This document shows, piece after piece, positions 645 to 27,047 of a stretch of DNA of 64,000 bases. Both the position numbers and the translations under genes were made by a program. The notes under the pieces were generated by a model. The model was not told the DNA's origin, ran no database searches, and worked only from the letters and a program-made list of their open reading frames with translations. The DNA comes from an uncultured bacterium (lineage in GTDB: Bacteria; Pseudomonadota; Alphaproteobacteria; Rs-D84): assembly GCA_950096895.1 (NCBI GenBank), contig CATNBF010000003.1:3801-67800 (forward strand). Reading direction: 5' to 3'. Within the stretch, counting starts at the first letter, position 1. Every line of letters starts with the position of its first letter.

Positions 645-2174
645 CTAATCATTCGACGTATCAACAACTTTGTTATCTATAACCAGTTCATCATCAATAC
701 CCCTCGCATCTTTTGCCTGTGCATCAATTTGTTGCGCCAATCTTTGTTGAATTTTATTCGTTTTCCTTATTTCTTTGTTTAATTCTCTGTTTTCTTTACT
801 GTTTTGCTTGGCAACGGCATCTTTTTGCGCCTGGGTCTCCAGATCACTAACTGCCTTGTCCACGGTTTCATTGTTTTTGATAACCTGATCTGCCATAGAT
901 TTGTTTGCCGCGGCATTTTCTTTGCTTTCTGCTTCTTTTTCTGCTTCGGCTTTCTTTACAGCCTTGGACGCCTTTTGACTATCCATGGCGCGATTAATGG
1001 CCCCAGATGCAAAACCACCGGCGGCAATACCCAACCCGCCCCCCATAAACTGCATCGTGGCAGATTCTTGTTCCCGCGTGCGTCGATAGGCGTTTTCTTT
1101 GAATGTTGTAATATTAACACCAAACCAATCTTGGTTACAGTCAAAGGACATACCTGCATACCGCTTGCGCGATGCAAAAGGCTTGGTTTCTTTGTCGGCA
1201 TAAAAATTCACGGTAAAGACACAATCAAATGTCCGTTCATCAAACATGGCCCCCATCCCCTGGCATTTCGTGGCCATTTGATCCCGCAAAGCGGTCAAAC
1301 GTTTTTCATCTTGTTGAATCTGTTTTTCGGCATCAACACGCAAATTCGCCAATACTTCACCTGTACGAGCAGCCAAGCCATTATCGACACGCGTCGTGCA
1401 TTCTTTCAAATCAGAATTACATTTGGCAATGGCTTTATCCGCGGCGGTTTTGCCCAAACACTGGGTCATTTGGATGCCGCACGTGCTGATAATACATTTG
1501 TTATAATTATTTCCACAATCGTAAATATTTTGATAATTTGCCAAACGCGCATAATGATCACGATCGGCCCGAATTTCATCAACAAACAGATTAAATTCTT
1601 TGGCCGTACATTCTGTTTCCCGCCGGCAAGAATTTAATTTATCCGACCATATAGTATCGCCATCACCGGCACAGCCCGAAAATTTATTATCCGAACACTT
1701 TTTCGCCATACACGCCCGCAATTTCTGGTCACAGAGAATTGCCCCACCCAATACCTGGGTCTGTTCCGCGGCCTGGATCGCATCGGCTGCATCCAGACTG
1801 GCCCGCTGGCGACGAATGGCCGTCCCCAGGGCGTCTTCGTCTGCACTTTTTGTTCCTTGACCGACCGCCGACATCGCTTCTTCGAACATGGCCGATCGAT
1901 CTTCGATAATCATGGGCTGGGGCTCTGGTTCGGTTACAACCGTCGTTTCTACCACCTGTTCTGTGACGATGTCCGCCGCCGGTGTTGTTGCCGGGGCCAC
2001 AGTATTTCGCACCGTCGCTGATGCCGCCCCACGCGATACCGCCGGACGCGTCGCACCACCCCGCGCAGTTACATTGGCCGAAAACGCCGGCATCACACCA
2101 ATCACCAGCCCCAGCGCAACCACCACCCCGGCCCGGATTTTTTTATTCCAAAGATCTTTTATGCCCTGTGTCAT
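645..2174 (-). CDS. secreted/membrane-anchored cysteine-rich protein, paralog family member P0 (509 aa)
   Basis: N-terminal hydrophobic segment (VVVALGLVIGVMPAFSA). Ala/Thr/Arg-rich linker. Cys block CDQKLRACMAKKC matching the family motif C-x6-C-x4-C. Gly-rich segment GGGLGIAAGGFASG like the P2 C-terminus. Lys/Glu-rich coiled-coil tail. Confidence 0.7.
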   Translation of the reverse strand: MTQGIKDLWNKKIRAGVVVALGLVIGVMPAFSANVTARGGATRPAVSRGAASATVRNTVAPATTPAADIVTEQVVETTVVTEPEPQPMIIEDRSAMFEEAMSAVGQGTKSADEDALGTAIRRQRASLDAADAIQAAEQTQVLGGAILCDQKLRACMAKKCSDNKFSGCAGDGDTIWSDKLNSCRRETECTAKEFNLFVDEIRADRDHYARLANYQNIYDCGNNYNKCIISTCGIQMTQCLGKTAADKAIAKCNSDLKECTTRVDNGLAARTGEVLANLRVDAEKQIQQDEKRLTALRDQMATKCQGMGAMFDERTFDCVFTVNFYADKETKPFASRKRYAGMSFDCNQDWFGVNITTFKENAYRRTREQESATMQFMGGGLGIAAGGFASGAINRAMDSQKASKAVKKAEAEKEAESKENAAANKSMADQVIKNNETVDKAVSDLETQAQKDAVAKQNSKENRELNKEIRKTNKIQQRLAQQIDAQAKDARGIDDELVIDNKVVDTSND

Positions 2175-2196
2175 GATTGATTAATAAATCCCTGTC

Positions 2197-3069
2197 CTAT
2201 TTTCTGACCGTATTACATGCCAATTCCATGTATTTACACATCAACACCGCCGATGCCCGTTCGGCGGCATAACCATCTGCACACTGATGCGGCATATTAG
2301 TGCTGCACACCTGCTCTACACAACGATCGCGCCCTTTGGTACCTTGACAATCACTTTGTACCACCGCCCATTCTTCGGTGCGTTTTTTCTGATACGATGC
2401 CGCAATTTGGTTCAAAACCGTTTCGGCATTCTGGATCGCAGTATCACGATTGGCCAATAATGTCGTCCGAATCCCTTGCATAAATTCATCGCAACCCGTC
2501 GCATCCGACACCGCGCATTCCGACAGATTTCGATCAAATACCACCCCATCGACACACCCGGCATAGTTGCCCCCACAACGTTTTTCCTGAATAATACATG
2601 CCTGCATTTGTGTTTCACACGTGGCCTGGTCTTTAACAACCTTGGCCGCCACGGCCAATTGGCTATATTGTGCCGCCACGCCCGCCGCCGTACATGATTG
2701 CGATATCAACTTGTCATAATTATCCGCCACATCATCTGCCGTACACGCCGTTAATTTGGCCAAACACTGTGTCTGGGCCCATGCATAGCGCGTCACAGGA
2801 TCCGTCGGCGCGTTTTTTAATTCTTTGTCTGATATGGTATAATTTGATGATTGTCCCACAGACACACTGCGCATCCCCCCCTTGGTCGGTGGCGTACCCG
2901 CATCGGGCGTTCCACAATATTGACACCGGGCGGATGGATTGCTGCCTATATTAATGGCACACACAGAATCCAAGCAGCGTGTCAAATTCGCCCGCGAACA
3001 TGTCGCCGCCCCCACAGAACCGGTCGCCATTATCCCCAAGGCTATAAAAATCACAGGTTTTATATTCAT
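2197..3069 (-). CDS. secreted cysteine-rich protein, paralog family member P0b (290 aa)
   Basis: Signal peptide MNIKPVIFIALGIMATGSVGAA. Cys-rich (about 28 Cys), including a loosely family-like N-terminal CSRANLTRCLDSVC block (C-x7-C-x4-C, without the CMDxFC core). 22-bp gap to the downstream P0, suggesting an operon. Confidence 0.7.
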   Translation of the reverse strand: MNIKPVIFIALGIMATGSVGAATCSRANLTRCLDSVCAINIGSNPSARCQYCGTPDAGTPPTKGGMRSVSVGQSSNYTISDKELKNAPTDPVTRYAWAQTQCLAKLTACTADDVADNYDKLISQSCTAAGVAAQYSQLAVAAKVVKDQATCETQMQACIIQEKRCGGNYAGCVDGVVFDRNLSECAVSDATGCDEFMQGIRTTLLANRDTAIQNAETVLNQIAASYQKKRTEEWAVVQSDCQGTKGRDRCVEQVCSTNMPHQCADGYAAERASAVLMCKYMELACNTVRK

Positions 3070-3768: not shown

Positions 3769-3772
3769 ACCA

Positions 3773-3797: not shown

Positions 3798-3927
3798 TAG
3801 TCCACAGATCACATCAAAAAAATAAGCGGCGCAAAAATTCTTTTTATAAATATTTTCTGGACATATAAAAATGCTTTATGTTAAGATTTATTATATATGG
3901 TATATATTAAGTAGAGAGAATACATCC

Positions 3928-6900
3928 ATGAAACGCATAAAAGTTTTATTCGCGGCCTTGATTATGTTGCCCATGGCGGCATTCGGGGCCAGTGATTTTA
4001 CCGTGGCGGCCCAATTATTGGCGGCGGCAAAAAATGCCGATATTCAACAGGTGCAAATCCTGATCAATAATGGCGCAGATGTCAATTATGTGGATAGCAC
4101 GGGCCTATCCTTGGTATGTACGGCATTGATGAATAATGACTTGCGGGCGGCCCAAATTCTGCAGATGTATGGCGCAGATGCATCAAAATGTGATCGCCAG
4201 ATTAAAAAATATAACAACAACAATCGCCCCGTTGAAAATAGCGGGGGGCTGTTTAGCGGCCTGTCGTCAACCCAAACAATTGCATTGGCGGCGGCGGGGG
4301 CCGCCGTTGTCGTTGGGGGGCTGCTGCTGCTGACGGATGTGTTTGATCCAGGTAATGACAACAATAATCCAAGTGGCGGTGGTTCACGCCCAGGGGGCGA
4401 TCCAGATCCGATTGTGCCCATTGCCAAGGAAAAATTCACCCTGCCCTATGGGCCGGCAATGCCGGACAAGCAATCGGAATTGGACGATTACATCAACAAT
4501 CTGAATGTGTATAGTCCATCGATTGATAATATTTATTCCCGGAATTTTAAGTTGATGACGAACGGGACAACGCAAAATCCTGCTCAAAATTACCTGTTGA
4601 TGATGCATGGATATTCACCACTGGCCCGTGGATATTTGGGGGCGCGGACATTACGCTATGAATCTAATGCGCCGGTACCGAATTCTGTGTTGGGAAAAAT
4701 TAATATCAAAGGCGAAATTGTTGGCGGTGGACGCCCGGTTAATGTCGCCTTGGTAACAGCAAACGGGATTAATGCCACGCCAAAGCCGGCCGGTGCCATC
4801 AGTGCCGAAAAAAATTCCTTGGACGATAAATTATTGGCCTGGACCAGTATCAGTGGTAATCAGCTTAATCTGGCCCCCGAAATCGGTAATTTATCCAGTA
4901 AATATTTCAACAACAAAATCATTCTGGGTGGTGACGGTGCAGAATTAACGAATTCTTATACGGTCGAAGACGGCGATTTAGTGGGGGCATTTGACTTAAC
5001 CGGATTTGGCACAGCGATCAATAATGCAAATGCATCGAATTTGGATAATCAATTGGCCAAGATCTTGGGCGGAAACCCCAGTGGTTACGCCAATGCCGAT
5101 TACATCGGCTTTATTCCCAACGGTCAAATGACCATCTTTCGTTCGGGCGATGGCACGGGTATGATTGACGTGGCCGCGGCGGATGCGATCAATGGAACCT
5201 ATACCGGCCCAGGGAATAAACCAGAAACCATCACATTTAATGGGAAAACATACACGCTGGTTCATACGGGGACAACATTTGTTGCCACAGAAAACGTTGC
5301 CACGGGCGAAACCCCAACGGTCTTGAATGGATATATGGGCGCAAACGGTATGATGTATATGGCCTCTGTTAATGGGTCAAATACCATTGATATGGCCTTT
5401 AACCTGGCAACTGCGGGGATTATGACGCAAAAGTTAAAACGGGGTGAAATTGATTACATGAATTATACCGCCTTGTTGCGTGCCAAGACATTATCCACAG
5501 ACTTGGCCGGTGGTCGTTCACGCGTGGGTGTTATTGCCAATGGCAATGTTATCGGTAAATTGCACAGTCGCGATGCCGCCACCATCGACACGATTTTATC
5601 GGGGGCATCAAACAATTATCAAACATCTTTCTTGAATCTGGTCAATGAATATTATCAAAATCCCAATGCAGATCACAGTGGCACATCCTATACATCCCCA
5701 TCTGATGCCGCCCAGGCATTCTTTGGCGGCATTTGGTCTGCGGATTCAACACCATTGACCATCTTTTCCACCGGGGCATTTGAAACGGATCAGAATTATT
5801 CTGGCCCAACATTAACCGCATCTTTTGAAAATGCCGCCCCATTGGTGTTTGGTAATAAATTATCCCATTTGTTTGCATCTGTGGTGGCGGTTGGCCTGAC
5901 GGGATCGGGTACCAATGACCAATCAAATGTGTCTGGGTATTCAACATCAAATAAAATTGCCATATCCCAATGGCGCGATATGAATGGAACGCCATCCGAC
6001 CCAGATGATGATAAATACTACAAGGCCCGTATTTGTGGGGTTGCTGGGACCGGAACCGGGGCAATTGACCCGTGGTGCTTTGCAGCGGCGGGAATTACCG
6101 ATGAAATGGCGGTATCATCGATGGCCGGTGCGGCGGGCGCATTGCGATCGGCGTTTGATTACATGAACACAGACCAGATTTTTGTGTTGATGGCATTGAC
6201 AGCAGATGGTCCCTTTTTGGCCACAACAACCAATGGAACCGCAATGACGCGTGATGATTTGATCGCCCATTTACAGTCGATGTACCTGTTGCCCAATGAA
6301 TACCAGGCGGCAGTAACCAACGGAACAAAAACATATTTGGATGCATTCCGCGAAGTCTTTGGTTATGGTCTGATTAATTTGGAACGCGCCACAAAACCCA
6401 ACACCAAGATTTATTTCTATGACGGATCGGCCAACCGAATTGTATCGGCCAATGGAAATGCCTATTGGCGCGCCGCCAGCAATACGGTATTTCGGGCATC
6501 TTCGGCGTTTGCACCGCGTACCGCCACAATCAGTGCACCCTTCTTTGATATCCTGGAAAGTGTAGATGGCGATATGTCCATGCCACGTATCTGGCAGAAC
6601 GAATTTGCCATCGGCACCACCGATGCCCGCGGATTATATATGGGCGACGTATTGGGGGAAATGCGGGTCCGTGATGATCAAAACCGTATTGCCCGAACAC
6701 AAATCGGTAATATGGAATTTGCCATTGGCATGTCTGATCGACGGGGCGATGATAACCTAAATGGGTTGGATACAATGCGGCTGGATTACGCCCATGGGAA
6801 CGTACACCTGGGGGCCGGGTTCCAGCGTAATTTCACCGATGGGGCGGCGCGTTTTGATGACCGAACAAATCCTGTCTTGAACCTGGCATCAAATGTCTTG

Positions 6901-7644
6901 ACATCAGATGCGGCATATAATTATGGCAATTGGACATTTGGGGCACGGGCATTTTCGGGTGCGATCACAGACGAAGGCCTGTTGGAAAACGATCCAACCG
7001 TGGCGGCCAACTTTGAACCGGGCCAATTGGGCCTGGCCCATGGGGGACAAATCAGTGTATCGCACACGCGTGACAATTTGCGTTTAGACCTGATGACTGG
7101 TGTGTTACGTGAATCGAATACCATTTTGGGGGCCCAGACCGGCGGATTGTTAAGCCTGGGCGGCGGCGATACCATGTACATTAACGCGACGGCGCAATAT
7201 GATCTGGGGTCGGATCTCACCCTGTATGCGCGATCAACATTTGCCCGTACAACTGGCGATGCCAATGGGGATTTTATCATGGGGCTTAGCTCTATTGACT
7301 CAAATTCATTTGCCATCGGCGCAGATGTTGGCCCGGTGACATTAACACTGGCCCGCCCATTGGGGGTAACACGTGGTCATATGCAATATGCCCATGCCGA
7401 ATATGACGTTGTTCAAAACGCCGACGGCAAATATGAATTGAATGTTGTTGATACGCATGTTGCAGATCTTAACCTAAGCCCGCGTCACCGCGAACTGCGT
7501 CTGATGGCGGAATATCGCCGCCCACTGGGGAAATTTACCGATGGAGCCTTTGGAATGATATACCGCATTCATCCCAACAATACAGATGAATTCGGAAATG
7601 AATCAATCTTTATGATGAAATTTAGCCATCGCGTCGGCATCTAA
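3928..7644 (+). CDS. large (about 1238 aa) exported surface protein: signal peptide, ankyrin-repeat N-terminus, degenerate subtilase-like region, beta-rich C-terminal domain (possible autotransporter/OM barrel)
   Basis: Start chosen at ATG 3928 (MKRIKVLFAALIMLPMAAFGA signal peptide, GAGAGA RBS). Ankyrin-like repeat AAKNADIQQVQILINNGADVNYVDSTGLSLVCTALMNNDLRAAQILQMYGADAS. Hydrophobic segment TIALAAAGAAVVVGGLLLL. Subtilase-like C-terminal signature FGYGLINLERA, but the Ser motif is degenerate (SSMAGAAGAL). Last ~450 aa show an alternating hydrophobic beta pattern. Confidence 0.65.
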   Translation: MKRIKVLFAALIMLPMAAFGASDFTVAAQLLAAAKNADIQQVQILINNGADVNYVDSTGLSLVCTALMNNDLRAAQILQMYGADASKCDRQIKKYNNNNRPVENSGGLFSGLSSTQTIALAAAGAAVVVGGLLLLTDVFDPGNDNNNPSGGGSRPGGDPDPIVPIAKEKFTLPYGPAMPDKQSELDDYINNLNVYSPSIDNIYSRNFKLMTNGTTQNPAQNYLLMMHGYSPLARGYLGARTLRYESNAPVPNSVLGKINIKGEIVGGGRPVNVALVTANGINATPKPAGAISAEKNSLDDKLLAWTSISGNQLNLAPEIGNLSSKYFNNKIILGGDGAELTNSYTVEDGDLVGAFDLTGFGTAINNANASNLDNQLAKILGGNPSGYANADYIGFIPNGQMTIFRSGDGTGMIDVAAADAINGTYTGPGNKPETITFNGKTYTLVHTGTTFVATENVATGETPTVLNGYMGANGMMYMASVNGSNTIDMAFNLATAGIMTQKLKRGEIDYMNYTALLRAKTLSTDLAGGRSRVGVIANGNVIGKLHSRDAATIDTILSGASNNYQTSFLNLVNEYYQNPNADHSGTSYTSPSDAAQAFFGGIWSADSTPLTIFSTGAFETDQNYSGPTLTASFENAAPLVFGNKLSHLFASVVAVGLTGSGTNDQSNVSGYSTSNKIAISQWRDMNGTPSDPDDDKYYKARICGVAGTGTGAIDPWCFAAAGITDEMAVSSMAGAAGALRSAFDYMNTDQIFVLMALTADGPFLATTTNGTAMTRDDLIAHLQSMYLLPNEYQAAVTNGTKTYLDAFREVFGYGLINLERATKPNTKIYFYDGSANRIVSANGNAYWRAASNTVFRASSAFAPRTATISAPFFDILESVDGDMSMPRIWQNEFAIGTTDARGLYMGDVLGEMRVRDDQNRIARTQIGNMEFAIGMSDRRGDDNLNGLDTMRLDYAHGNVHLGAGFQRNFTDGAARFDDRTNPVLNLASNVLTSDAAYNYGNWTFGARAFSGAITDEGLLENDPTVAANFEPGQLGLAHGGQISVSHTRDNLRLDLMTGVLRESNTILGAQTGGLLSLGGGDTMYINATAQYDLGSDLTLYARSTFARTTGDANGDFIMGLSSIDSNSFAIGADVGPVTLTLARPLGVTRGHMQYAHAEYDVVQNADGKYELNVVDTHVADLNLSPRHRELRLMAEYRRPLGKFTDGAFGMIYRIHPNNTDEFGNESIFMMKFSHRVGI

Positions 7645-8389: not shown

Positions 8390-8420
8390 AAAAAATTCCC
8401 GCCAATGGCGGGATTTTTTA
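8390..8420. terminator. bidirectional rho-independent terminator (AAAAAATTCCCGCC-aat-GGCGGGATTTTTT)
   Basis: A-tract, 7-bp GC stem, T-tract. Lies at the 3' end of the minus-strand gene 8418-8786. Confidence 0.6.
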
Positions 8421-8786
8421 TTTGACGATTTCAATCCGTTCGACATCAATTTCAGACTTGGTTAATCCACGATCAACTTCGCCATAAATTTTAACAACAT
8501 CATCCGGTGTCACTGTCACGCCATTCCAGTCATCATCATCTATTTCAATGGTTATGGTGCCACTCTGGTCACGCAGAATATATTTCTCGTCCCCTTGACG
8601 GCGAATAATGTTTCCTTGGACCACAACATAGGCATCATCACGCATACCGTTAACCTGGTCTATGGTGAAAATTGTTTCTGCCGTATCGACAAAGCCCCCA
8701 CGCATTTTTGGTGCCGGTTGAAATTCTGCATGCGCCGACGTAACCAAGACCAGTCCGCCCAACGCCATCATCATTGATTTTTTCAT
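8418..8786 (-). CDS. YgiW/BOF-family (bacterial OB-fold) periplasmic protein
   Basis: Start at ATG 8786 (MKKSMMMALGGLVLVTSAHA signal peptide, GGGGGAAAG RBS). Family signature DDDDWNGVTVTPDDVVKIYGEVDRGLTKSEIDVERIEI. Confidence 0.65.
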   Translation of the reverse strand: MKKSMMMALGGLVLVTSAHAEFQPAPKMRGGFVDTAETIFTIDQVNGMRDDAYVVVQGNIIRRQGDEKYILRDQSGTITIEIDDDDWNGVTVTPDDVVKIYGEVDRGLTKSEIDVERIEIVK

Positions 8787-8899
8787 ATCTTTCCCCCATT
8801 TGGTTGTGTATATCAATTATACCACACGCAAAATCAAAAATATCCAGGAATCATATCGCAAAAAAATAGCCAGGCGGTTTCCCATCCTGGCTATGGCGA

Positions 8900-14038: not shown

Positions 14039-14070
14039 TAAAAAATCCCGCGATATGCGGGATTTTTTAT
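14039..14070. terminator. bidirectional rho-independent terminator (AAAAAATCCCGC-gatat-GCGGGATTTTTTA)
   Basis: Directly after the infA stop. A-tract on one side and T-tract on the other. Confidence 0.65.
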
Positions 14071-14343: not shown

Positions 14344-15054
14344 TTATTGGGCAAAATGCGCGTCACGCTGCTTTTTTGAAACGCTGATCATTTTATCAAA
14401 CAGCTTGCTAACCGATGCGCCATCGGGCATGGCCGATGTTGATCCTGTTGTGTAATCTGCCCCATTTAAGACCACAATACGCGACGGTAAATCTGTGTGA
14501 CCATCACACTCTATAAAATATTCAGATGGGTCATAAAATTTGCCAAAACAACGCGAATTTTGAACCGCAACCCAACCATTGGGTGCCAAATCCGCACATT
14601 TGGGTTGTTCCCCCAACGTGATTTCACCGGTGGCAACAACTTCGTCAACACGATCCAAAACCCCATTGCACCACACAGGAATCATTTTACCATCAATGGA
14701 AACATGGGCACCATCGGTACTGGTCCGGCGAACACCAAAACAGTCCCCATTTAACACCGATGGATCAAAATCCCGATTGATGCCGCGCATGGCAACGATG
14801 TCTGCCCGTCCCAATGGAACCGGCCCAGAACCACCAGCCGTTAATGCATCAGGACAAATTAATTTCATTCCCCAACAGTTATCTGCCGCATCCCACAATG
14901 TATCATCAAACCCAGCCCCCATGGAAACATAGCATTTGGTTGGATTTGGCCGACAAATATACGCCTGGTCCCACCATGGGATCGTAATGGCCGCATGACC
15001 CGTTGTTGCGGTCCCCAAACATAACATCGCAAAGAAAGCACCAAATTTTTTCAT
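14344..15054 (-). CDS. hypothetical secreted Cys-rich protein (236 aa)
   Basis: Signal peptide MKKFGAFFAMLCLGTATTGHA. 12 Cys. No recognisable family. Not obviously a member of the large paralog family. Confidence 0.5.
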   Translation of the reverse strand: MKKFGAFFAMLCLGTATTGHAAITIPWWDQAYICRPNPTKCYVSMGAGFDDTLWDAADNCWGMKLICPDALTAGGSGPVPLGRADIVAMRGINRDFDPSVLNGDCFGVRRTSTDGAHVSIDGKMIPVWCNGVLDRVDEVVATGEITLGEQPKCADLAPNGWVAVQNSRCFGKFYDPSEYFIECDGHTDLPSRIVVLNGADYTTGSTSAMPDGASVSKLFDKMISVSKKQRDAHFAQ

Positions 15055-17716: not shown

Positions 17717-17812
17717 TCCACTTTATTATTATACAGTGTAACAAAAAAATAATCCCCAGGGCAAGGCCTTTGTTATTAAAATTATCCCTTGGGTATCGCC
17801 CAATGATGGGAT

Positions 17813-17850
17813 AAAAAAAATCCCGCAATTTGCGGGAAATTTTTTTATTT
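17813..17850. terminator. bidirectional rho-independent terminator after rplQ (A-tract, TCCCGC-aatt-GCGGGA, T-tract)
   Basis: AAAAAAAATCCCGCAATTTGCGGGAAATTTTTTTATTT overlapping the rplQ stop. Marks the end of the alpha operon. Confidence 0.65.
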
Positions 17851-18396
17851 GCCAGTGGCGCGGCGTCTTACCGCAACTTCTTTTTTGGCACCGGTCGCTT
17901 TGGCCGCCTTGGTCGCTTCTTTGGCAACTTTGGTCGACGGGGCGCGTGGCGCTTTTTCTGCCGGGGTGGTTGCCGGGGCTTGATCCGCCGCCGCATCCGT
18001 TGCCGCCGGTTTTACAACCTTTTTCGCACTTTCGTCACGATCAACCAATTCAATGATCGCCATCGGTGCCGCATCCCCATACCGGAACCCAGCCTTTAAT
18101 ACGCGGGTATAACCACCCGGACGCTTGACATAACGGGGCCCCAAAACAGTAAACAGTTTTTTCACCGTTGCATCCGATCCATTCCCCAGTTCCGATGCCG
18201 TCAAGCGACGATTGGCCACAGTGTCAACCTTGGCCCGTGTAATCAGTTTTTCGACCACACCGCGCAGGTCTTTGGCCTTGGGCAATGTTGTCTTGATCTG
18301 TTCTTTTTCAATTAAATTTTTCGCCAAGCCGATAAATAACGCCTTGCGTGCATTGGTATCGCGATTAAATGTGCGACCTGCTTTTGCGTGTCTCAT
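17845..18396 (-). CDS. rplQ: 50S ribosomal protein L17 with C-terminal Ala/Lys/Pro-rich basic extension
   Basis: [56 protein letters not shown] is the L17 core. The last ~60 aa are a histone-H1-like tail. Confidence 0.88.
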
Positions 18397-18798
18397 GATT
18401 ACTCCTTTTTATTACTTTCTGCCCCGGGATCCGGGGATTTTCACAAGATGGCACCCTAAAAAAACTTACTTTTTTCAGAAATGCACCGCGTTGATTTTAT
18501 ACAATTTTCCCCAAAAAGCAAGGAAAAAGTCCATTCCCCACATAGGCGGGGAAAATAAGAAATTAAATTATGTGCGACAAATGATGCCACAGAATTTAAT
18601 AAAAATTGTCAGAATGTGCCGAATGGCGATTTTAACGGTGGCGTGGTGTAATTACCCACATCAAGCCAACAAAACACCATATGACACGTTCTGGTAAGAA
18701 ATTAAATTTTATGAGATGATTGGAAACGGTTGCCGGTTCGTAGTGTAGTCGACCTACATGAGAACCAGCAACCGTGACAAGCGTCCATAAAATTTAAT

Positions 18799-19827
18799 TT
18801 ATTTGTAGGGGTCTTCGTACTTCTTGGCCAATTCCGCGATATTTTCTGGCGGCCAACCCGGTACTTCCATCCCCAGGCCCAGCCCCATGGCTTCTAATTG
18901 AACTTTGATTTCGTTCAAAGACTTGCGGCCAAAGTTCGGCGTTTTTAACATATCGGCTTCAGTCTTTTGAACCAATTCGCCCAACCAGTTAATTTTGTCA
19001 TTTTTCAGACAGTTATTGGCGCGAACCGACAATTCCAGTTCATCAACATGCTTTAACAATTTCGGGTCGAACGGCAACGCATCTTTGGCTTTTTCTTCTT
19101 CGGCCGGGGCATTGATTTGCGCCGGATCTTCAAAGTTAATAAAGACAACCAATTGGTCGGTCAAGATACGCGCGGCATATGCAATGGCATCTTCGGGCGA
19201 TACAGAACCATTTGTTTTTACCGTCAATTCTAATTTATCGTAATCTGTTGATTGTCCAACGCGGGTCGCGGTAACATCGCTGGCCACGTTCAAAATCGGC
19301 GAAAAGATTGAATCCACCGGAATAACACCCAACGGCAACCCATCGGCATGCGCCGACGCCGGAACATAGCCACGCCCCGTAGATAATGTGATTTCCATAT
19401 CCAGGTTCGCCCCTTTGTCCAGGGTGCAAATTTCTACGTCTTTGTTCATTACTTCGACACCGCCAGACGTTTCGATCATGCCTGCGGTAACGACCGCCGG
19501 TCCTTTGACCTTGATCGTGGCTTTATGTTGACCTTCGGTTAGGGCCTTGAAATAAACACCTTTTAGGTTCAAGATGATATCCGTCACATCTTCGCGAATG
19601 CCGGCCAGACTTGAAAATTCATGCTGAACCCCATCGATCTTGATAGAAATTGGGGCACATCCCTGTAACGAAGACAACAGAACACGACGCAACGCGGTTC
19701 CCAATGTCAACCCAAAACCCTTTTCCAGCGGATCTGCAATTAATGTGGCAATGTTCGGATTATGTTCATCAACCTTGATTGTCAATTTCTTTGGCTTAAT
19801 CAAAGTCATCCAGTTTTTTTCAATCAT
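18799..19827 (-). CDS. rpoA: DNA-directed RNA polymerase alpha subunit
   Basis: [15 protein letters not shown]...[48 protein letters not shown] closely matches alphaproteobacterial RpoA. Full alpha-CTD present. Confidence 0.93.
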
Positions 19828-19887: not shown

Positions 19888-20427
19888 TCAGAAATCCCCC
19901 AAAGTCAATTGTTTTATCGTGTCGCAGGGATTTTCAAAGACAATCTCCCGTCCCCCCGCCGCACACCAATCGGCAATATTACCCGCCCGATCATCAATCA
20001 ATAAATCATTTGATGTGGGATGAATCAAATCTTCTTTGGCACCACGGACAACAATAACATGCGTATCGTCAAAATAATGCAGCATATGACGCGCAATCCA
20101 TGCGCGTTTTTCCCGGTCGATAAAATCAACATACGCATCGGACCCAACAAAATTTTTGGCCCCCGGCACCTTGGTCAAGACGTACAGTTCGCCGCGCTGG
20201 GCCGCCGTACGCAATAAGTCATCAATACCCGACATAACCGGCAAATCACGCCAGAAATGTGGCCGCTGCTCAATCATGCGCCACCGGGCCCGCTTGGCCG
20301 CGCGACCAGCATCGTCCATTTGTTTGGTCTGAAGATTTAAGTCAACCGACACCGGTGGCAAATCAACTGTTCCCTGATAAAAATCTGCCAAAACACCATC
20401 CATATCAAAAAATATTCTCATTGACAT
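19888..20427 (-). CDS. HAD-superfamily 5'(3')-deoxyribonucleotidase-like (NT5C-type) hydrolase
   Basis: N-terminal IFFDMDGVLADF is HAD motif I (DxDGVL). AAGGAG RBS. Located between rpsK and rpoA, where no gene is normally found. Confidence 0.55.
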   Translation of the reverse strand: MSMRIFFDMDGVLADFYQGTVDLPPVSVDLNLQTKQMDDAGRAAKRARWRMIEQRPHFWRDLPVMSGIDDLLRTAAQRGELYVLTKVPGAKNFVGSDAYVDFIDREKRAWIARHMLHYFDDTHVIVVRGAKEDLIHPTSNDLLIDDRAGNIADWCAAGGREIVFENPCDTIKQLTLGDF

Positions 20428-20701
20428 AGCCTGTCCACTCCTTTTTTTGCATTAAATAAACATTGAAAATATGGTATAAATGAAACGAAAAAGTAAGATA
20501 AATTCAATTGATGTTATATCACGTACGAACTTGTTGTGCAATCCAAATGTTTACCCTTTTGCGAACAATCCGATAAATAATAATAAATCCATATTGAACC
20601 TCAGATCGTGCCACGGGCCATACCATCGCACGGGCGATCACGTTTTCATAAAACGAGGCGAAAAAATACGTATATTATGGATCTGGGGGCCCGGATCATA
20701 A

Positions 20702-20731
20702 CAAAAAAATCCCGCCGGGGCGGGATTTTTC
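20702..20731 (-). terminator. rho-independent terminator downstream of P4 (AAAAAAATCCCGCC-gg-GGCGGGATTTTT)
   Basis: GC stem flanked by an A-tract and a T-tract, immediately 3' of the P4 stop (20732-20734). Confidence 0.6.
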
Positions 20732-23611
20732 CTACATCTTGATAACCTGGGTTTGGGTCTGGGGTTCTGAAAATTCTTTACAGACCACCCCTTGATACTC
20801 GGTCGATACGACCTTTTTCTTCTTTCTGAACAAACCACCGCGCTTTTTCGTCGTTGTCGTCTTCATCAAAGTTTCCAGGTTTTTACATTCCTTGGTCACG
20901 GTCGTGATGGTACATTCATTCTTGGCCGCATCGAACAATGCCGATTTGTTCACAGATCCGATCTGGGCCCCAGATTCTTCATCGGTCAAGATCCATTCAC
21001 CCTTGCCCGATGCCTGACTCTTGGCCATGTTTGACATACCAACCCCAGTAATCTTAATTTCTGTTGCACTCTTTGTCTCGCCTGCGCCATCCAAAGTAGA
21101 CAACAATTGATCCACCGCGCTAACTGTTGTCGTGTTTCCGTCTTTGTCTGTTACTTCTTCGGTATCATCTGCATTCATCGCCATCGCCGCACACATTACC
21201 GCTTTGGTTTCGCTGCTTTGATTTGCGACCGCTGCAGCATATAATTCATTGAATTTTTTGTCATAGTTTTGACGTGCCTGCTCTAAGATAGATTCAGCAA
21301 TCACATATTCATATGGCAACAGCAAGCTGGGGTATCTGCCTGTGCTGCGTTGCTTGTCCCCCAGGCTGATATTACGGACATCGCGCCCATTGACACACTC
21401 GTCAACATTGCGATCGTTTAATATCATGCTAAGTTTGCCATCTAACTCTCTTTGCATGGCATTGATCATACCTTCAATTCGATCCTTGACTCCCGCTTCA
21501 ACCGTCGCTGGGACTGTGTACGAGAACTTATAATTATATTGATAATCGTCCAATGCATCCCCCACATCTTCGGTGGTTCCATTGGTCGCGGTTGCATCAC
21601 CCGTTTTCTTATTAGTCTTTTTGATCTTGACAGCATTAAAATCAACCAATCCATCAATGATGTAATCGTTACCATCATGACGACCATCCAGGCTGGATGC
21701 GCCAACTGCGGTGGTTAATTCACAATAATCGATATCACCACAGATATCAATCATCCGATTATCGGCAAATTTTTCACATTGTGTTGCCATCTTGTTATCG
21801 ATTTCGTTAAATATCCCACGCAAGAACGAATTAATCTCTGCATCATCATAGCTGGCTTGTATACGTCCACTTGTACCATCTGCCTTTTGGCATCCCACCA
21901 GCTTGGCAACCGGACACATTTGTTTCAAATCATCCAGATCCATATTGAAACATGCCGAATAATCCGGACCACAACGATTTGGTGATTGCAAACAATTTCT
22001 CATATCATTGGCACATTCATCAACCCGCAACGACGCCAATTTATCGTCAACAAAATTCATAATTCCTGGGATTGCTGTTTCGCACTGATCAATCTGAACC
22101 TTGCAGGCACCACGGGCAATATTCGGGTCGGTCGCACATGCCGCCATTGTGGCGGCATCATCGGAACCAACCGAAGATTTACAGTGATCGTTAATACATT
22201 TCGTAATCATGGACAGACAGCTGTTACGCAAATTCGATTCTGCGATCAATTCCGCCGATTTAATCTGGGGTGCAATCATGCGCAAGAACGCATCAAACAC
22301 TTGGTCTTTGACATCTGTACATGAATTCAAGATCGTTTTACAGACAACAGATTTTGCCGCCAAATCACTGTACGTGTATGAAGAAATACCAATATTGGCC
22401 GCCATACCAGAAATCTGGTATTGGTTTAAGCTCTCGCCTTTTAGGCTCATCATCGCACTCATCCCGATACATCCTGAAAAATCAGTACCGCATTCGGCTT
22501 TATCTTGCATACATTCTTTGAACTTTAATGTACATTCACCCAAATCATATGCATTCGCAGAACGATACGATTCCAATGCCGCCGCACGCAGTTCTGTTTC
22601 CGCCGTTTGCAGTTTTTGAGCCGACGCATCACGCATCGTCTTTAACGAATTTTCATACGCCGCACAGTCACCTTTGATCTTTTGACCATACATTAACTGC
22701 AGCATATTGATTTCCGCCTTACACTCTGGCATCTGGGCCACGCATAAATCTGCCGCCGCCTTGTGCAGGGCATCGCCTGTTAAATTCGCAATATCATTCT
22801 TGGAATCATTCAAATCAAATATATCGAAATCATCATCGTCTTCGAACAGTGATTTCGTCCACGCCGATGTATGAGCCTTGTAGCCTTTGGATTTCTGGGG
22901 GGTTGTTATGTCTTTAATTTCAATGCTGTTTTCAACCTCTTTGGCGGCCTGGTTTGCCATTTTAATCGCCGCATCTGCATCAGAACCCATATTAATCCGT
23001 TCCACCCCCAGGGTTACCATCTGATACGATTGACGATCCAATTTTTCAATTTCTGCCAAAATCGCACTATAATCTTCGTTCTTATCACTGCACATACAGC
23101 GGCCACCACTGGCATTATCAATCATACAGAAAGAATCCATACAGCCTTCGTATTTTTGGCGACAATCCGTGCTGACCACTACATTTTCGGTCGCTGTGTT
23201 AATCTTGACCCCACTTTGAATAACCTTTTGTGTGGATGCGGCACGGGCCGACACGGTCGGTGCCTTGGCCGATCCAGCATTGGTATTTGCGGTATTTGTG
23301 CGGCTTGCACTGCGTGCCGAAACCGTTGACGTTGTTGCCCCAGAATTATTTCCCGCCGGTGCATTTGACCGCACCGCCGCCCGTGCCGAAACCGCAGACG
23401 TCCCGCCGCCCGTTGCCGGTGCAGATACGCGCGTCCGTGACGCCGCACGTGCCGCCACAGGGGCCGCCCCAGTATCCGATGACGACACATTATTTGCCGC
23501 CCCAGATGCCCCCGCACCACGCCGTTGAACCGGTGCAGCTGCGTCTGCAACCCCAGTAAATCCCATTAAAAATGCCGAAAATAATACAAGAGCTTTCATC
23601 TTTTTCCCCAT
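20732..23611 (-). CDS. secreted cysteine-rich protein, paralog family member P4 (959 aa)
   Basis: Signal peptide. About 120-aa A/S/R/T linker (SARAA/SARSA repeats). Motif CRQKYEGCMDSFCMIDNASGGRCMCSD. Long colinearity with P1. C-terminal GGLFRKKKK...CKEF...VIKM. Alternative start at ATG 23599 (MKALVLF) has a GGGGAAAAAG SD. Confidence 0.75.
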   Translation of the reverse strand: MGKKMKALVLFSAFLMGFTGVADAAAPVQRRGAGASGAANNVSSSDTGAAPVAARAASRTRVSAPATGGGTSAVSARAAVRSNAPAGNNSGATTSTVSARSASRTNTANTNAGSAKAPTVSARAASTQKVIQSGVKINTATENVVVSTDCRQKYEGCMDSFCMIDNASGGRCMCSDKNEDYSAILAEIEKLDRQSYQMVTLGVERINMGSDADAAIKMANQAAKEVENSIEIKDITTPQKSKGYKAHTSAWTKSLFEDDDDFDIFDLNDSKNDIANLTGDALHKAAADLCVAQMPECKAEINMLQLMYGQKIKGDCAAYENSLKTMRDASAQKLQTAETELRAAALESYRSANAYDLGECTLKFKECMQDKAECGTDFSGCIGMSAMMSLKGESLNQYQISGMAANIGISSYTYSDLAAKSVVCKTILNSCTDVKDQVFDAFLRMIAPQIKSAELIAESNLRNSCLSMITKCINDHCKSSVGSDDAATMAACATDPNIARGACKVQIDQCETAIPGIMNFVDDKLASLRVDECANDMRNCLQSPNRCGPDYSACFNMDLDDLKQMCPVAKLVGCQKADGTSGRIQASYDDAEINSFLRGIFNEIDNKMATQCEKFADNRMIDICGDIDYCELTTAVGASSLDGRHDGNDYIIDGLVDFNAVKIKKTNKKTGDATATNGTTEDVGDALDDYQYNYKFSYTVPATVEAGVKDRIEGMINAMQRELDGKLSMILNDRNVDECVNGRDVRNISLGDKQRSTGRYPSLLLPYEYVIAESILEQARQNYDKKFNELYAAAVANQSSETKAVMCAAMAMNADDTEEVTDKDGNTTTVSAVDQLLSTLDGAGETKSATEIKITGVGMSNMAKSQASGKGEWILTDEESGAQIGSVNKSALFDAAKNECTITTVTKECKNLETLMKTTTTKKRGGLFRKKKKVVSTEYQGVVCKEFSEPQTQTQVIKM

Positions 23612-23622
23612 TTATTTTTGAC

Positions 23623-23633
23623 ATTTTATCACA
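23623..23633 (-). promoter_or_regulatory. putative extended -10 promoter element (TGTGATAAAAT) for P4
   Basis: Minus-strand TGTGATAAAAT lies 12 nt upstream of the P4 ATG. The homologous cassettes at 27074-27084 and 3085-3093 read TGTGATATAAT and TGATATAGT. Confidence 0.35.
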
Positions 23634-23679
23634 TTTCAATAATTAAAGAAAATACTTTTTTACAATTTCATAATACATG

Positions 23680-23707
23680 TTGACAAATTTTATTTTTGAA
23701 TTACAAT
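23680..23707 (+). promoter_or_regulatory. putative promoter TTGACAAATTT-16-TACAAT (possibly leaderless) for gene 23715
   Basis: TTGACA 23680-23685 and TACAAT 23702-23707. ATG at 23715 sits at about the predicted TSS. About 80 bp of flanking sequence is homologous to 27048-27159. Confidence 0.4.
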
Positions 23708-23714
23708 TTAAGGT

Positions 23715-24527
23715 ATGAAACAGTCACCAAGACATCATTTCTATCGAACCGCACCGGCATATGTTATGACGAACGAAGACCTGCGTTGGGTCAACACAAT
23801 TGTCAACCCCCATGCCCAGCGGGTTTTAACCGTCGCGGCCAGCGGGGATCATCCCTTGTTCTATCAACTATTCGGGGCCACGCACGTTGACACATTTGAC
23901 ATTTCTTATTGCGCAAAATTAATCACAGATATCAAATGCGCCGCCATTCGTTCATTGGATTTATCACAATATTCACAATTGATATTCAATTTATTCAATG
24001 CCCCATGCGTCACCGAATTACCCCATATGACCGATACAATTATGCCGCAGCTGGGTTCACTGGCCCAAAAATTTATAAAAAAATACGATCGTTCTTATAT
24101 TTTTTCAAACGGTATTCAACCGGCATTATATTATAAAAACTTTCTGCCGACCCCGAATGAATACCAGAAATTGCAACAGATGAATATTAATTCTTTTCAT
24201 TTTATCAATACAGATATCCAGCTTTTGCATACACAATGCCCAAACAAATACGACATCATCAATCTATCCAATATCTTTGAATACATTCATGACACCAATA
24301 TCATCAAAGACACACTGTGTCATCTGGGACACCTGTTACACATGGGGGGCAAAATTATTGTCCACCAAACAGAAATATTAACAAACACCCAACAAAATAA
24401 TTATTATCACATCAGCCAGCAATTAGCCCCATGGGCCAGAATGGGCATCTATGTCAAAGATAAAACCAAAGACATATGCCAGCCAACCGCCATCATCTTA
24501 CAAAAAATTAACGAGATTATCCGATGA
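23715..24527 (+). CDS. putative class I SAM-dependent methyltransferase (270 aa)
   Basis: Weak Rossmann-fold MTase motifs: VLTVAASGDHP (motif I-like), VDTFDIS (acidic end of beta-2), YDIINLSNIFEYI (motif II), LLHMGGKIIV (motif III, LKPGG-like). Divergent from P4. Confidence 0.4.
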   Translation: MKQSPRHHFYRTAPAYVMTNEDLRWVNTIVNPHAQRVLTVAASGDHPLFYQLFGATHVDTFDISYCAKLITDIKCAAIRSLDLSQYSQLIFNLFNAPCVTELPHMTDTIMPQLGSLAQKFIKKYDRSYIFSNGIQPALYYKNFLPTPNEYQKLQQMNINSFHFINTDIQLLHTQCPNKYDIINLSNIFEYIHDTNIIKDTLCHLGHLLHMGGKIIVHQTEILTNTQQNNYYHISQQLAPWARMGIYVKDKTKDICQPTAIILQKINEIIR

Positions 24528-25090
24528 CACGCACCCCCTATTATCATATGTTATATATTGTCGACGAATACATGGGCTTTGCACCACATGGCCATATGGA
24601 CATGCAAAAGTTATATAGACTTGTTGGCAACTATTATTATCAAAACGCTTTAATCTTTAACTATGATTCAAATCGCTGGAATCACAATAAAGAATATATG
24701 GATTATGAACTTAATGATCTGTTGGATGATGTTACCCCCTATGTCATTAAAATGAAACTCGTCACTGAATCTGAACCATGGGCCCAGGGCAAAGATTTGG
24801 TTGGATTTGCCATCATGCCTATTGATGCCCAAAATTACCCCGGATACAGCAAAGGTTTAATAGGCCCTGTTGCCGATCCAGACGGAACCGCGATTGTTGG
24901 CAATGTCATCTGGCGCGATCGCAAGACACGGCGTCTGATCCCGATGTGCAACAAATGGACATGTGGTGACAGATATCAATTTCCCATCGAAACCATGAAC
25001 CTAGGAATCGCAGAATTCGCCGATACATTTAACCAGGTTGACCTGTTTCGTCAATGCGTGGCCCGAAATAATGGTATTAAACTTTATTAA
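24524..25090 (+). CDS. hypothetical protein (188 aa), translationally coupled to the upstream gene
   Basis: ATGA overlap with the stop of 23715-24527. No recognisable domain. Confidence 0.4.
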   Translation: MTRTPYYHMLYIVDEYMGFAPHGHMDMQKLYRLVGNYYYQNALIFNYDSNRWNHNKEYMDYELNDLLDDVTPYVIKMKLVTESEPWAQGKDLVGFAIMPIDAQNYPGYSKGLIGPVADPDGTAIVGNVIWRDRKTRRLIPMCNKWTCGDRYQFPIETMNLGIAEFADTFNQVDLFRQCVARNNGIKLY

Positions 25091-25121
25091 AAAAATCCCC
25101 ACATATGTGGGGATTTTTTTG
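25089..25121. terminator. bidirectional rho-independent terminator (AAAAAAATCCCCACA-ta-TGTGGGGATTTTTTT)
   Basis: Perfect 8-bp stem between the convergent genes 24524-25090 (+) and 25128-27047 (-). Confidence 0.65.
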
Positions 25122-25127
25122 GTGTCT

Positions 25128-27047
25128 TTATTGACAAATGCCATTTGACTTTGCCACCGGTTTGTTTTCGACACACTGGCTGCCGGATGCGACACAGGCC
25201 GCATCAACAATCGTTGTCGCCCCACTGGCATTCTTATAGCTGATTCTGGCGGACGCGCATTGATTCAAATCGGTCAATTTAGCGCACGCATTGTGCCATG
25301 AATCACAATCTGTGATTGCCACAATCGGGGCCGCCGTATCCGGCAGTTTTAGATTCCATTTCACATAGAAATCTTTCAAACTGTCGATCTTGTATGATTT
25401 ACCCATCGATACCTTGGCCAGACCATCACCCACATGGCAGCTGATGTTGTTGCGTTCAACAAAGGCCGTAATCGCAGTGGCCAATCCACCCGCACCGGCA
25501 CCAATCCCGGCACCCGTCAATGTCGATTCCAACATATTGGAATCATCACCATTTTCAAGATCGAATTCTTTCCAAACACCTTCCAGTTCCGACAGCTGAC
25601 GCCGCATTGTGGCCACATCGACACAATCATCACTGCCGTCTGCGGCATCACACATGGCCGCCCCGCCCCGAATTAATGCACGATTCAAGGAATGGAATCG
25701 ACATGTCGGATTACCCGCACCATCTGTTACACGGGTATCCGTGCTGGTCGATGTTGTGGTTCCATTTGCCACTGTAACTTCTATGGTATCTGTAACAGTA
25801 TATCCATTACCGCGATGACAGGCATCAACCGCTTCCTTGATATCAAAATATCTCTGATACAGATCTAAAATATCCTGGCACTGGCTGCTGGTGATATCAC
25901 CACCAACCAAGGAAATGCTGTCATTCAAATACTTATTCAAAATGGCCATCTTGCTACTTTTACGCAGCTGGTTTGTAAAGCTCTTTAATTGCTTATCATC
26001 ACTGCAATTAAATTCACGATCACCATGTCCGGCCCAGGCCCCAATACCGGCCCCAACAACCGCACCACCACCTACGCCAACAACCGCGGCACTACGTGTC
26101 TTGTTCATCAATGAAAATCCGAACAAATCTTTGTTACAAGAAAATGTGTCGCCGGCACTCTGCCATACTTCGGCTGGTTCATCATTGCCCAACGCGCCAA
26201 ACAACCATGTGTTCGAAATTTGTTTATCTTTGTTATAGGCCGCCACACGCACCAAACATGTTGCCGTTGTTGCATCCCAACGGGCATAATGCCCACGCGA
26301 CCCATCTACGGTATCATTGTCTGAATTAACCGCCACACCTTGGGGATTTTGCTTTTGCAAATCACCACCCATGGTATTATACGCCCCAACAACTTGGCCA
26401 TATTCGGTCGTTACGCTACCCGAATTGGAAACCGCGGCAAAAGACGTACCAAACGTATTTCTATCCAGTAACAAGCATGTATTTTCTGCCTGGTTCGGTG
26501 TTAAACCTGTCTTGCGCAAAACAAAGTTGTAATATTCCGGCTGAATCCGGCGGGAATTAAAGTCCGTCCAAACATCGGCCGACGACGCATAAACAGATGT
26601 ACAATTTTTACGCACATCGTTAACGCAACGATCCACCTGGATCGAACACAACCCCATTCCATTCATGATCGCGTTACGTAAATCTTCGTTAAACAAATCA
26701 TTCAAACCGCCTGGCAATGCACCACCATTAACACAGCCCAATAAATCATTCATACAATTTTCGATTGTATATTCAGAATCTGCCACACCACCATCGGCAC
26801 ACTTGGTATTGGGTTTTACCGCATTGTTTCCCGGATTGCTGGTTGAAATGTTGCCAATGCTCATCCCTGGCAAGGTCGGCATTGTCGGCATACGCGCAGA
26901 TGACGACGTCGGCATAACCCCAACGCGCCCCATGCGCCCAGTATTCGACGTTCCACGTGCCGGATCTGCCGCACATGCCGCCGTCACAATCGCAATTGCG
27001 CCCAGGCTGGATGCGGACGCGCCAAAGATTTTTAGCAGTTTATGCAT
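25128..27047 (-). CDS. secreted cysteine-rich protein with Gly-rich segments, distant paralog family member P5 (639 aa)
   Basis: Signal peptide MHKLLKIFGASASSLGAIAIVTAACA. S/T/P/G/M low-complexity linker. ENCMNDLLGC block (family motif variant). Gly-rich hydrophobic segments VVGVGGGAVVGAGIGAWAG and TGAGIGAGAGGLATAITAF similar to P0 and P2. Confidence 0.65.
   Translation of the reverse strand: MHKLLKIFGASASSLGAIAIVTAACAADPARGTSNTGRMGRVGVMPTSSSARMPTMPTLPGMSIGNISTSNPGNNAVKPNTKCADGGVADSEYTIENCMNDLLGCVNGGALPGGLNDLFNEDLRNAIMNGMGLCSIQVDRCVNDVRKNCTSVYASSADVWTDFNSRRIQPEYYNFVLRKTGLTPNQAENTCLLLDRNTFGTSFAAVSNSGSVTTEYGQVVGAYNTMGGDLQKQNPQGVAVNSDNDTVDGSRGHYARWDATTATCLVRVAAYNKDKQISNTWLFGALGNDEPAEVWQSAGDTFSCNKDLFGFSLMNKTRSAAVVGVGGGAVVGAGIGAWAGHGDREFNCSDDKQLKSFTNQLRKSSKMAILNKYLNDSISLVGGDITSSQCQDILDLYQRYFDIKEAVDACHRGNGYTVTDTIEVTVANGTTTSTSTDTRVTDGAGNPTCRFHSLNRALIRGGAAMCDAADGSDDCVDVATMRRQLSELEGVWKEFDLENGDDSNMLESTLTGAGIGAGAGGLATAITAFVERNNISCHVGDGLAKVSMGKSYKIDSLKDFYVKWNLKLPDTAAPIVAITDCDSWHNACAKLTDLNQCASARISYKNASGATTIVDAACVASGSQCVENKPVAKSNGICQ

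Follow-up and report, generated by a model that had tools for sequence, protein, structure and literature searches.

What are the large exported cysteine-rich proteins encoded around the ribosomal-protein genes of an uncultured gut alphaproteobacterium, and do they form one family? The locus lies in a 64,000-nucleotide stretch (the window) of contig CATNBF010000003.1, positions 3,801 to 67,800 of the forward strand, from the Rs-D84 assembly GCA_950096895.1. A reading of the sequence letters (the original prediction) proposed that seven minus-strand genes, P0, P0b and P1 to P5, are paralogues encoding surface or effector proteins. Alignments and profile comparisons show P1–P4 to be four paralogues; in our reading they are ancient and specific to the Rs-D84/Ca. 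Enterousia lineage. This large protein family, its fold and its ‘twin CX6C’ module are previously undescribed, and the kind of protein is already known: exported cysteine-rich envelope or surface proteins of a host-dependent bacterium. Our favoured reading, to which we assign a probability of roughly 45%, is that P1–P4 are conserved periplasmic or outer-membrane-associated envelope proteins that would take part in a multi-subunit structural scaffold. All seven predicted genes are present at the expected positions, together with an eighth exported cysteine-rich gene, o236, that had been missed:

P1, 8900-11407, minus strand: 835 residues, 36 mature cysteines; a paralogue of P2, P3 and P4.
P2, 11437-13638, minus strand: 733 residues, 36 mature cysteines; directly upstream of P1 across a 29-bp gap.
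P3, 15119-17716, minus strand: 865 residues; the most divergent of the four paralogues.
P4, 20732-23611, minus strand: 959 residues; the closest paralogue of P1, in the fastest-diversifying subfamily.
o236, 14344-15054, minus strand: exported protein of 236 residues with nine invariant mature cysteines, including two C-x6-C motifs; in an operon with P3, downstream of it.
P0b, 2197-3069, minus strand: satellite exported protein of 290 residues with 20 invariant cysteines.
P0, 645-2174, minus strand: satellite exported protein of 509 residues with 15 invariant cysteines; 22 bp downstream of P0b.
P5, 25128-27047, minus strand: lineage-specific exported protein of 639 residues with two glycine zippers.

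The seven predicted proteins contain 2.9–6.9% cysteine, versus roughly 0–1.4% for the products of ribosomal and other housekeeping genes in the window. The seven predicted genes sum to 14,511 bp, less than the 17 kb or so first claimed, and P1–P4 account for 10,188 bp. Sec export was read off the N-terminal sequences by eye, and by this reading each of the seven has the expected signal peptide, with a basic n-region leading into a hydrophobic core and then a cleavage site of the A-x-A type. Apart from the signal peptide, none of the eight proteins has a transmembrane helix. The expectation that no named family would be recognisable is borne out by Pfam and NCBIfam scans of all seven, which give nothing near cut-off (best E 0.0035–0.4). 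PHROGs returns only glycine-zipper noise in P2, o236 has no Pfam or PHROGs match, and neither a PDB sequence-profile search nor a PDB fold search finds a match to the family. In the literature on Enterousia, Rs-D84 and CX6C we found no account of these proteins.

The paralogy is confined to four of the genes. BLASTP connects P1 with P4 (3e-113), P2 with P4 (5e-53), P1 with P2 (2e-43), P3 with P4 (1e-29), P1 with P3 (1.5e-20) and P2 with P3 (4e-14), and profile–profile comparison with hhalign gives probabilities of 98.9–100% among them. The predicted colinearity of P1, P2 and P4 survives a proper alignment and extends to P3; the four-way alignment is colinear, with cysteine common to all four proteins in 21 columns. 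Orthologue-group HMMs built from 84 P1, 80 P2 and 73 P3 sequences match only P1–P4 among all open reading frames (ORFs) of the window (E<=10). Full-length colinear homology, including the N-terminal C-x6-C-M-D-x-F-C...C-x-C-S block, is present in P1–P4 and absent from P0, P0b, P5 and o236.

Comparisons involving the remaining genes behave differently. With deep profiles, P5 scores 1% against P1 and 0.3% against P0b in hhalign, and P0 scores 11% against P1 and 53% against P0b. P0b reaches 47% against P1, over a single 38-residue module (C-x6-C-x6-CG-x5-C) that is common to P1–P4, and P0 matches P5 at 85% over 92 columns (AGxxFxCxxDxFG plus a glycine zipper). The HMM and hhalign results therefore divide the proposed seven-member family into four paralogues and three satellite families: as judged from these profiles, P0, P0b and P5 each constitute an orthologue group of their own within the lineage and have at best short modules or the C-x6-C spacing in common with P1–P4. 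Early scores of 84% for P0 against P3 and 78% for P0b against P4 dropped to at most 31% after trimming of signal peptides and linkers, indicating that these regions had driven them. P5 and o236 were ruled out as members of the P1–P4 family by the orthologue-group HMMs and hhalign.

The motif content is narrower than first described. A short motif, C-x6-C-M-[DA]-x-[FK]-C, is found in P0 and in P1–P4; the strict form proposed for these five, C-x6-C-M-[DA]-x-[FK]-C-x(6,9)-C-x-C-S, occurs in P2, P3 and P4 and not in P0 or P1, the latter missing it because its variable gap is x10. A recurrent C-terminal module had also been proposed. Its RNCHVC element is confined to P1 and P2, and of the GG-x-[WF]-F-RKK element, P1 carries GGxWFRKK and P4 reads GGLFRKK. 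The low-complexity spacer that follows the signal peptide, expected in every member, is missing from P0b and short (~30 residues) in P1; in P3 it spans ~150 residues. This spacer is rich in Thr, Ala, Ser and Arg and varies in length between orthologues, such that the first motif cysteine falls at residue 51–142 in P1, 79–222 in P2 and 112–187 in P3. A V[MI]QSG motif is found in P1, P3 and P4, as VMQSG within the short P1 linker, and A-x-R-[GS] is conserved near the spacer start.

The chain termini also carry shared features. Mature P0, P2, P3, P4 and P5 have A-x(1-5)-R-[GS] immediately following the site of predicted cleavage and periodic arginines in the linker, and this shared N-terminus may be a common sorting or anchoring signal; a ‘SRMPT’ motif is common to the P0 and P5 linkers. 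P1 ends in ..CEDIPM and P2 in ..CEDINM, and almost without exception their orthologues end in [IV]-x-M and [IV]-N-M, respectively. The [IV]-x-M-COOH terminus after C-E-D (8900-8910 in P1, 11437-11447 in P2) resembles a class II PDZ ligand (hydrophobic-x-hydrophobic) and may serve to dock a PDZ protease or chaperone of the periplasm. P2 contains a glycine-zipper hairpin (~residues 665–714) before its tail that is conserved across orthologues, and similar zippers are present in P5 and in P0 (residues 376–394), which also has a charged C-terminal tail.

The most conspicuous property of these proteins is the spacing and retention of their cysteines. C-x6-C is the dominant short cysteine spacing in all eight, with 10 occurrences in P1, 11 in P4 and 8 in P2 versus 1.2–1.7 expected; the counts for P1, P2 and P4 exceed every one of 1000 shuffles, and that for P0 equals the shuffle maximum. 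Self-comparison identifies one 28-residue module present twice and no further repeat periodicity. Each of the 36 mature cysteines is at least 98% conserved in 84 P1 orthologues, and the same holds for the 36 of P2 in 80 orthologues. A census of cysteine presence over 188 diverse family members (P1 numbering) shows that the pairs 276+335, 388+403, 376+421 and 451+477 are always lost jointly and never singly, with parsimony placing ~2 paired-loss events at each of the first three and ~4 at 451+477. P3 lacks both 276/335 and 388/403. Cysteines 798 and 830 are also lost jointly, in a C-terminal region where the alignment is less reliable.

Loss only in pairs is the signature of disulfide partners. 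The jointly lost pairs appear to form nested antiparallel staples, with 376–421 placed outside 383–414 and 276–335 inside 269–342, suggesting that the proteins are built of twin CX6C helix pairs; intramolecular disulfides that staple antiparallel helices in this pattern are strongly indicated. In the AlphaFold model of P1 (pLDDT 66.9, pTM 0.39), long helices span residues 53–540, followed by a mixed helix/strand middle and C-terminal β-hairpins (769–834) that form a predicted cysteine-knotted β region of ~65 residues. The jointly lost cysteines fall within predicted helices of this model. P0b is predicted to be all-helical (pLDDT 79.3).

Such a density of cysteine could in principle serve other purposes, as metal or Fe–S ligands or as a redox or thiol buffer, and an anoxic habitat combined with the absence of a respiratory chain would make periplasmic oxidation non-trivial (PMC12306168). 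We consider this reading hardly probable, given that the cysteines are lost strictly in pairs whose partners are distant in sequence and that C-x-x-C-H and C-x2-C cluster motifs are lacking. Disulfides are favoured because an even number of cysteines is conserved, C-x6-C is the dominant spacing, losses are paired, a DsbA-like gene lies nearby and CxxCH, the haem c motif, is absent. The oxidoreductase gene in question (FSCPYC, membrane-anchored; 17594-18427 in locus L001) is located within 10 kb of P1 in 25 of 82 species-level loci anchored on P1 (L001–L082), in which neighbours were counted where contigs allow. Neither DsbB nor VKOR was seen in the locus flanks.

The P1-anchored loci have a common order, [o236<-P3] [infA] [P2->P1->BOF], with one orthologue each of P1, P2 and P3 per locus in fixed synteny. 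P2 and P1 are adjacent in 82/82 loci, P3 and o236 are paired in 67/82, and BOF lies downstream of P1 in 53/82. The genes that accompany the family in the window are:

BOF, 8418-8816, minus strand: YgiW-type periplasmic OB-fold protein (Pfam PF04076, 3e-29); last gene of the P2-P1-BOF unit.
infA, 13772-14038, plus strand: initiation factor IF-1 (Pfam eIF-1a, 3e-23); divergent from P2.
rplQ, 17845-18396, minus strand: with rpoA, the conserved anchor beside which the family is found in related genomes.
rpoA, 18799-19827, minus strand: part of the same conserved anchor.
o353, 27112-28173, plus strand: membrane protein containing a Pro-rich linker; forms a divergent pair with P5.

Selection on these genes is purifying. 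Median dN/dS (NG86) is 0.089 for P1, 0.086 for P2, 0.109 for P3 and 0.105 for o236, like that of periplasmic BOF (0.092); the values for P4, P5 and P0 are 0.18, 0.17 and 0.20, and P4 reaches 0.58 in some pairs. In one locus whose RpoA is 94% identical to that of the window, identity is 57% for P1, 60% for P2, 46% for P3 and 43% for o236. Low dN/dS combined with identity well below that of RpoA means that, at the sequence level, the proteins are constrained, yet evolve at the pace of envelope rather than core proteins.

These data bear directly on the proposal that the family consists of secreted effectors or toxins acting on a eukaryotic host. Signal peptides, large size, an ankyrin-repeat neighbour and the lack of a known family would all suit such a role. 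The single-copy status, 1:1 orthology and fixed synteny of P1, P2 and P3 across the 82 loci, cysteines that are at least 98% kept, and purifying selection (dN/dS 0.09–0.11; 0.17–0.20 for P4, P5 and P0) do not; nor was an enzymatic or toxin domain found by Pfam, NCBIfam or PDB sequence searches, or a dedicated secretion apparatus in 160 flanking regions. We therefore regard the effector proposal as very unlikely. One-to-one retention, cysteine conservation and low dN/dS point to conserved structural components, not to a variable effector arsenal.

The bacterium itself was correctly anticipated to be a host-associated alphaproteobacterium. It belongs to a reduced-genome gut lineage, order Rs-D84/Ca. 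Enterousia, with genomes of ~0.75–1.0 Mb; pathways for making lipids, amino acids and nucleotides are reported to be missing, as are standard transporters, and members, which lack pili and flagella, are predicted to be obligate symbionts or parasites (PMC12306168). The eight genes, ~15 kb, occupy 1.5–2% of such a genome. P1 has >1,256 database homologues, of which the best 120 are full-length, 57–66% identical and all named ‘hypothetical protein [Alphaproteobacteria bacterium]’. In a scan of one genome per GTDB species, 301 stretches encode the family, and the 80 that were kept derive from gut metagenome-assembled genomes (MAGs) labelled Ca. Enterousia, uncultured Rickettsiales or Alphaproteobacteria. 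Hosts of the kept loci include human, mouse, chicken, ruminants, horse and termite, and one MAG comes from Zodletone spring. Homologues of P0b (553) and P5 (764) come from MAGs of the same type.

A profile search of 1.84 billion representatives gives 1,010 clusters (50% identity) at E<=1e-3 and 464 at E<=1e-30. Among the 152 listed 50%-identity representatives, 100 are P4-like, 48 P1-like and 4 P2-like, and distant representatives carry no annotation beyond ‘hypothetical protein’. A metagenome scan with P4 alone produced no match, and an alignment-based scan gave the P4-like loci. Two contigs of one Ca. Enterousia MAG (L066 and L067) each contain a full-length P1-like gene (56% and 55% identity), which could reflect a second copy, a strain mixture or bin contamination.

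The reported biosynthetic deficits invite a role in nutrient uptake, with the proteins acting as saposin-like carriers that extract lipids or hydrophobic metabolites from a partner and shuttle them across the periplasm, in a lineage described as lacking both the pathways and the standard transporters (PMC12306168). This is unlikely: the proteins are ten times the size of saposins, and the window encodes a β-ketoacyl-ACP synthase (56961-58274, minus strand), so fatty-acid synthesis is not wholly absent.

We favour a structural role in the envelope. P1–P4 are made with a Sec signal peptide, as read from their N-termini, and are predicted to fold into long α-helices behind the variable Thr/Ala/Ser/Arg spacer, with disulfide pairs from the heptad-spaced C-x6-C motifs very probably pinning neighbouring antiparallel helices (~18 disulfides per protein). 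They would stay in the cell envelope, either within the periplasm or at the inner surface of the outer membrane, and the glycine-zipper hairpins of P2 and of its co-located neighbours P0 and P5 would help to keep them there. Together with o236, P0b, P0, P5 and BOF, they would assemble into a multi-subunit scaffold made rigid by disulfides. It would give stiffness or order to the envelope of a bacterium relying on a partner for most metabolites, a function resembling that of the cysteine-rich outer-membrane complex of Chlamydia without homology to it. This reading is suggested because each ancient paralogue has kept one copy per locus, because small cysteine-rich partners and periplasmic BOF are co-encoded, and because glycine zippers are present and no outer-membrane export feature was found.

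The main alternative, less probable in our view, is a surface location. After oxidative folding in the periplasm, the proteins would reach the cell surface as a coat or adhesins, with the spacer and rod-like helical body attaching to a partner cell, host mucus or epithelium, and P4-type proteins would make up its variable and exposed component. Eukaryotic parasites commonly have helical surface proteins rich in disulfides. Fast divergence relative to RpoA, the predominance of P4-like sequences among the listed representatives and the elevated P4 dN/dS fit this location, as do the exported ankyrin-repeat protein and Pmp-like autotransporters encoded by neighbouring genes and the predicted dependence on a host in a lineage without pili and flagella (PMC12306168). 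The Pfam and NCBIfam scans, however, detect no feature for translocation across the outer membrane, be it an autotransporter barrel, a two-partner secretion (TPS) domain, a lipobox or another, and P1, P2 and P3 are strictly single-copy with low dN/dS. Copy number is not expanded either, one family gene being present in 72 of the 77 P4-anchored loci that have a long member.

Several observations also weigh against the envelope scaffold. The P1 model is only moderate (pLDDT 67, pTM 0.39), divergence is much faster than that of core genes (P1 57% where RpoA is 94%), and the P4 subfamily is very diverse, as is common among surface proteins. The ankyrin-repeat neighbour and the Pmp-like autotransporters in relatives hint at host contact. 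No sorting signal is recognisable. The lineage lacks a respiratory chain (PMC12306168), which makes the re-oxidation of DsbA hard to account for. The scaffold is itself an analogy, and its placement in the envelope is putative.

The predicted tie to the ribosomal-protein region is confirmed in a second set, of 80 metagenome loci anchored on P4-like genes. Here the usual order is rpoA-rplQ-P4, then o353<->P5, then P0b-P0. The P4-like gene is the next one downstream of rplQ in 47 of the 56 loci that have both and is directly adjacent to it in 35 (median gap 113 bp); the o353/P5 pair co-occurs with P4 in 46/80 loci. o353 has a multi-transmembrane N-terminus, the Pro-rich linker and a ~100-residue C-terminal domain, and no Pfam match. 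The window is atypical in that P3, not P4, lies behind rplQ, P4 is located upstream of NT5C-rpoA, and both clusters are merged into one 27-kb stretch, which indicates that a lineage-specific rearrangement fused two clusters in this genome.

The transcription units are delimited by terminator-like sites:

17821-17837, minus strand: hairpin plus T-run between rplQ and P3.
14035-14073, both strands: bidirectional hairpin that closes infA (plus strand) and the P3-o236 unit (minus strand).
8413-8397: site after BOF.
25085-25124: site after P5.

A hairpin plus T-run is also present in the rplQ–P4 gap of 34/34 relatives. Co-transcription with the alpha operon is ruled out by the terminator-like site after rplQ in the window and in these relatives, so the family is a conserved neighbour of the alpha operon and not part of its transcript. 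The hairpins at 8397-8413, 14035-14073, 17821-17837 and 25085-25124 are bidirectional, with a TCCC(G/C)-loop-(G/C)GGGA core flanked by A-runs and T-runs, and terminator-like sites are enriched in the window (35 vs 21.7 expected). A 139-residue ‘ORF’ at 13829-14248 (minus strand) was rejected as a shadow of infA; its apparent ‘conservation’ in 77 loci is spurious.

The window has a split alpha operon: rpsM (30519-30896), rpsK (29974-30357) and SecY lie ~10 kb from rpoA. Genes for a hexapeptide transferase, o353, P5, o188, a DUF3419 protein, P4 and an NT5C nucleotidase are located between rpoA and rpsK, in the region 19888-30896 that also holds rpsK and rpsM, and no rpsD was seen between rpoA and rpsK/rpsM. 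Of the eukaryote-like context first described, the ankyrin repeat holds (3871-7644, PF13637, 3.9e-5) and the GCC2/GCC3 repeats do not (no PF07699 match in P0–P5 at E<=1). The gene at 3871-7644 (plus strand) encodes an exported protein of 1257 residues that has a single ankyrin-repeat unit and, judged by eye, a β-rich C-terminal region without an autotransporter Pfam match; it lies next to P0b-P0 in several relatives as well.

In 32–33 of loci L001–L082 (L001 13106-15021), genes for a MotA/ExbB/TolQ-like membrane protein (258 residues, by reading) and an OmpA-domain protein (370 residues) adjoin BOF. This pair is absent from the window, and the lineage is said to lack flagella. A tRNA-Pro(CGG) gene (55255-55331, plus strand), the only Rfam hit, lies 3.4 kb from an integrase-like ORF (58729-59727, minus strand) with Arm-DNA-bind_3 and Phage_int_M domains only; together they may be a remnant of an integrated element. 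Plus-strand GC skew stays below zero in nearly all 2-kb bins (−0.11 to −0.24), and the minus strand carries almost every gene, a pattern consistent with its being the leading strand of one replichore.

Rs-D84/Ca. Enterousia bacteria occur widely in the guts of humans, livestock, birds, rodents and termites, have genomes below 1 Mb and include no cultured member. Conserved across the sampled members and unlike any known family, the eight exported cysteine-rich genes stand out as candidates, the most obvious ones, for the machinery of envelope or contact that defines the way of life of the lineage. They offer antigens or markers for enrichment and imaging, a predicted disulfide map and a possible new disulfide-stapled helical module; their status is that of a well-characterised protein family and not of a new mechanism. 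A further, doubtful possibility is that P1–P4 and the small cysteine-rich partners form a previously unrecognised kind of hetero-oligomeric disulfide-stapled lattice in the envelope, which would serve as a redox-sensitive exoskeleton or attachment organelle. Such a lattice would be rigid when oxidised during host-to-host transmission, and the anoxic gut or contact with a partner cell would bring about its remodelling.

Among known systems, chlamydial OmcB and OmcA are similarly Sec-exported, cysteine-dense proteins of an obligately host-dependent Gram-negative bacterium, with Pmp-type autotransporters encoded alongside. They are thought to rigidify the envelope through disulfides, and the N-terminal basic segment of OmcB also functions in adhesion. 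They share no sequence similarity with P1–P4, which have no Pfam or NCBIfam match; OmcB is β-rich, whereas P1–P4 are predicted to be mostly α-helical, with disulfides that appear intramolecular and helix-stapling. The Helicobacter Hcp (Sel1-like) proteins are another paralogous family of secreted cysteine-containing proteins in a host-associated bacterium, α/α-repeat proteins in which each helix pair is disulfide-bridged. In contrast, the present family has no Sel1/TPR match at E<=1, no tandem ~36-residue repeats and no fold match, and its proteins are much larger.

Glycine-zipper outer-membrane proteins (SlyB/Pcp, the Rickettsia 17-kDa antigen, YMGG) resemble P2, P0 and P5 in their GxxxG-type segments. 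Such segments form hairpins that enter the outer membrane from its periplasmic face. The resemblance is limited: PF13441 is matched by P5 only and below threshold (16.8 bits vs a cut-off of 28.9), P2 and P0 match neither PF13441 nor PF05433, their zippers being visible and conserved by eye, no lipobox is present, the zipper accounts for little of each protein, and none is present in P1, P3 or P4. The mitochondrial intermembrane-space CHCH proteins (twin CX9C/CX3C) differ in cysteine spacing, which is x6 (one heptad) in P1–P4 rather than x9 or x3; PF06747 is not matched, and P1–P4 would place many hairpins in each chain of 730–960 residues in a bacterial periplasm. What the two have in common is an architecture of antiparallel helix pairs joined by two nested disulfides between equally spaced cysteine pairs, a topology that the proposed pairs 376–421 with 383–414 and 276–335 with 269–342 would reproduce. 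Should the lattice exist, the twin-CX6C hairpin would count as a new structural unit, the analogue in bacteria of the CHCH fold of mitochondria.

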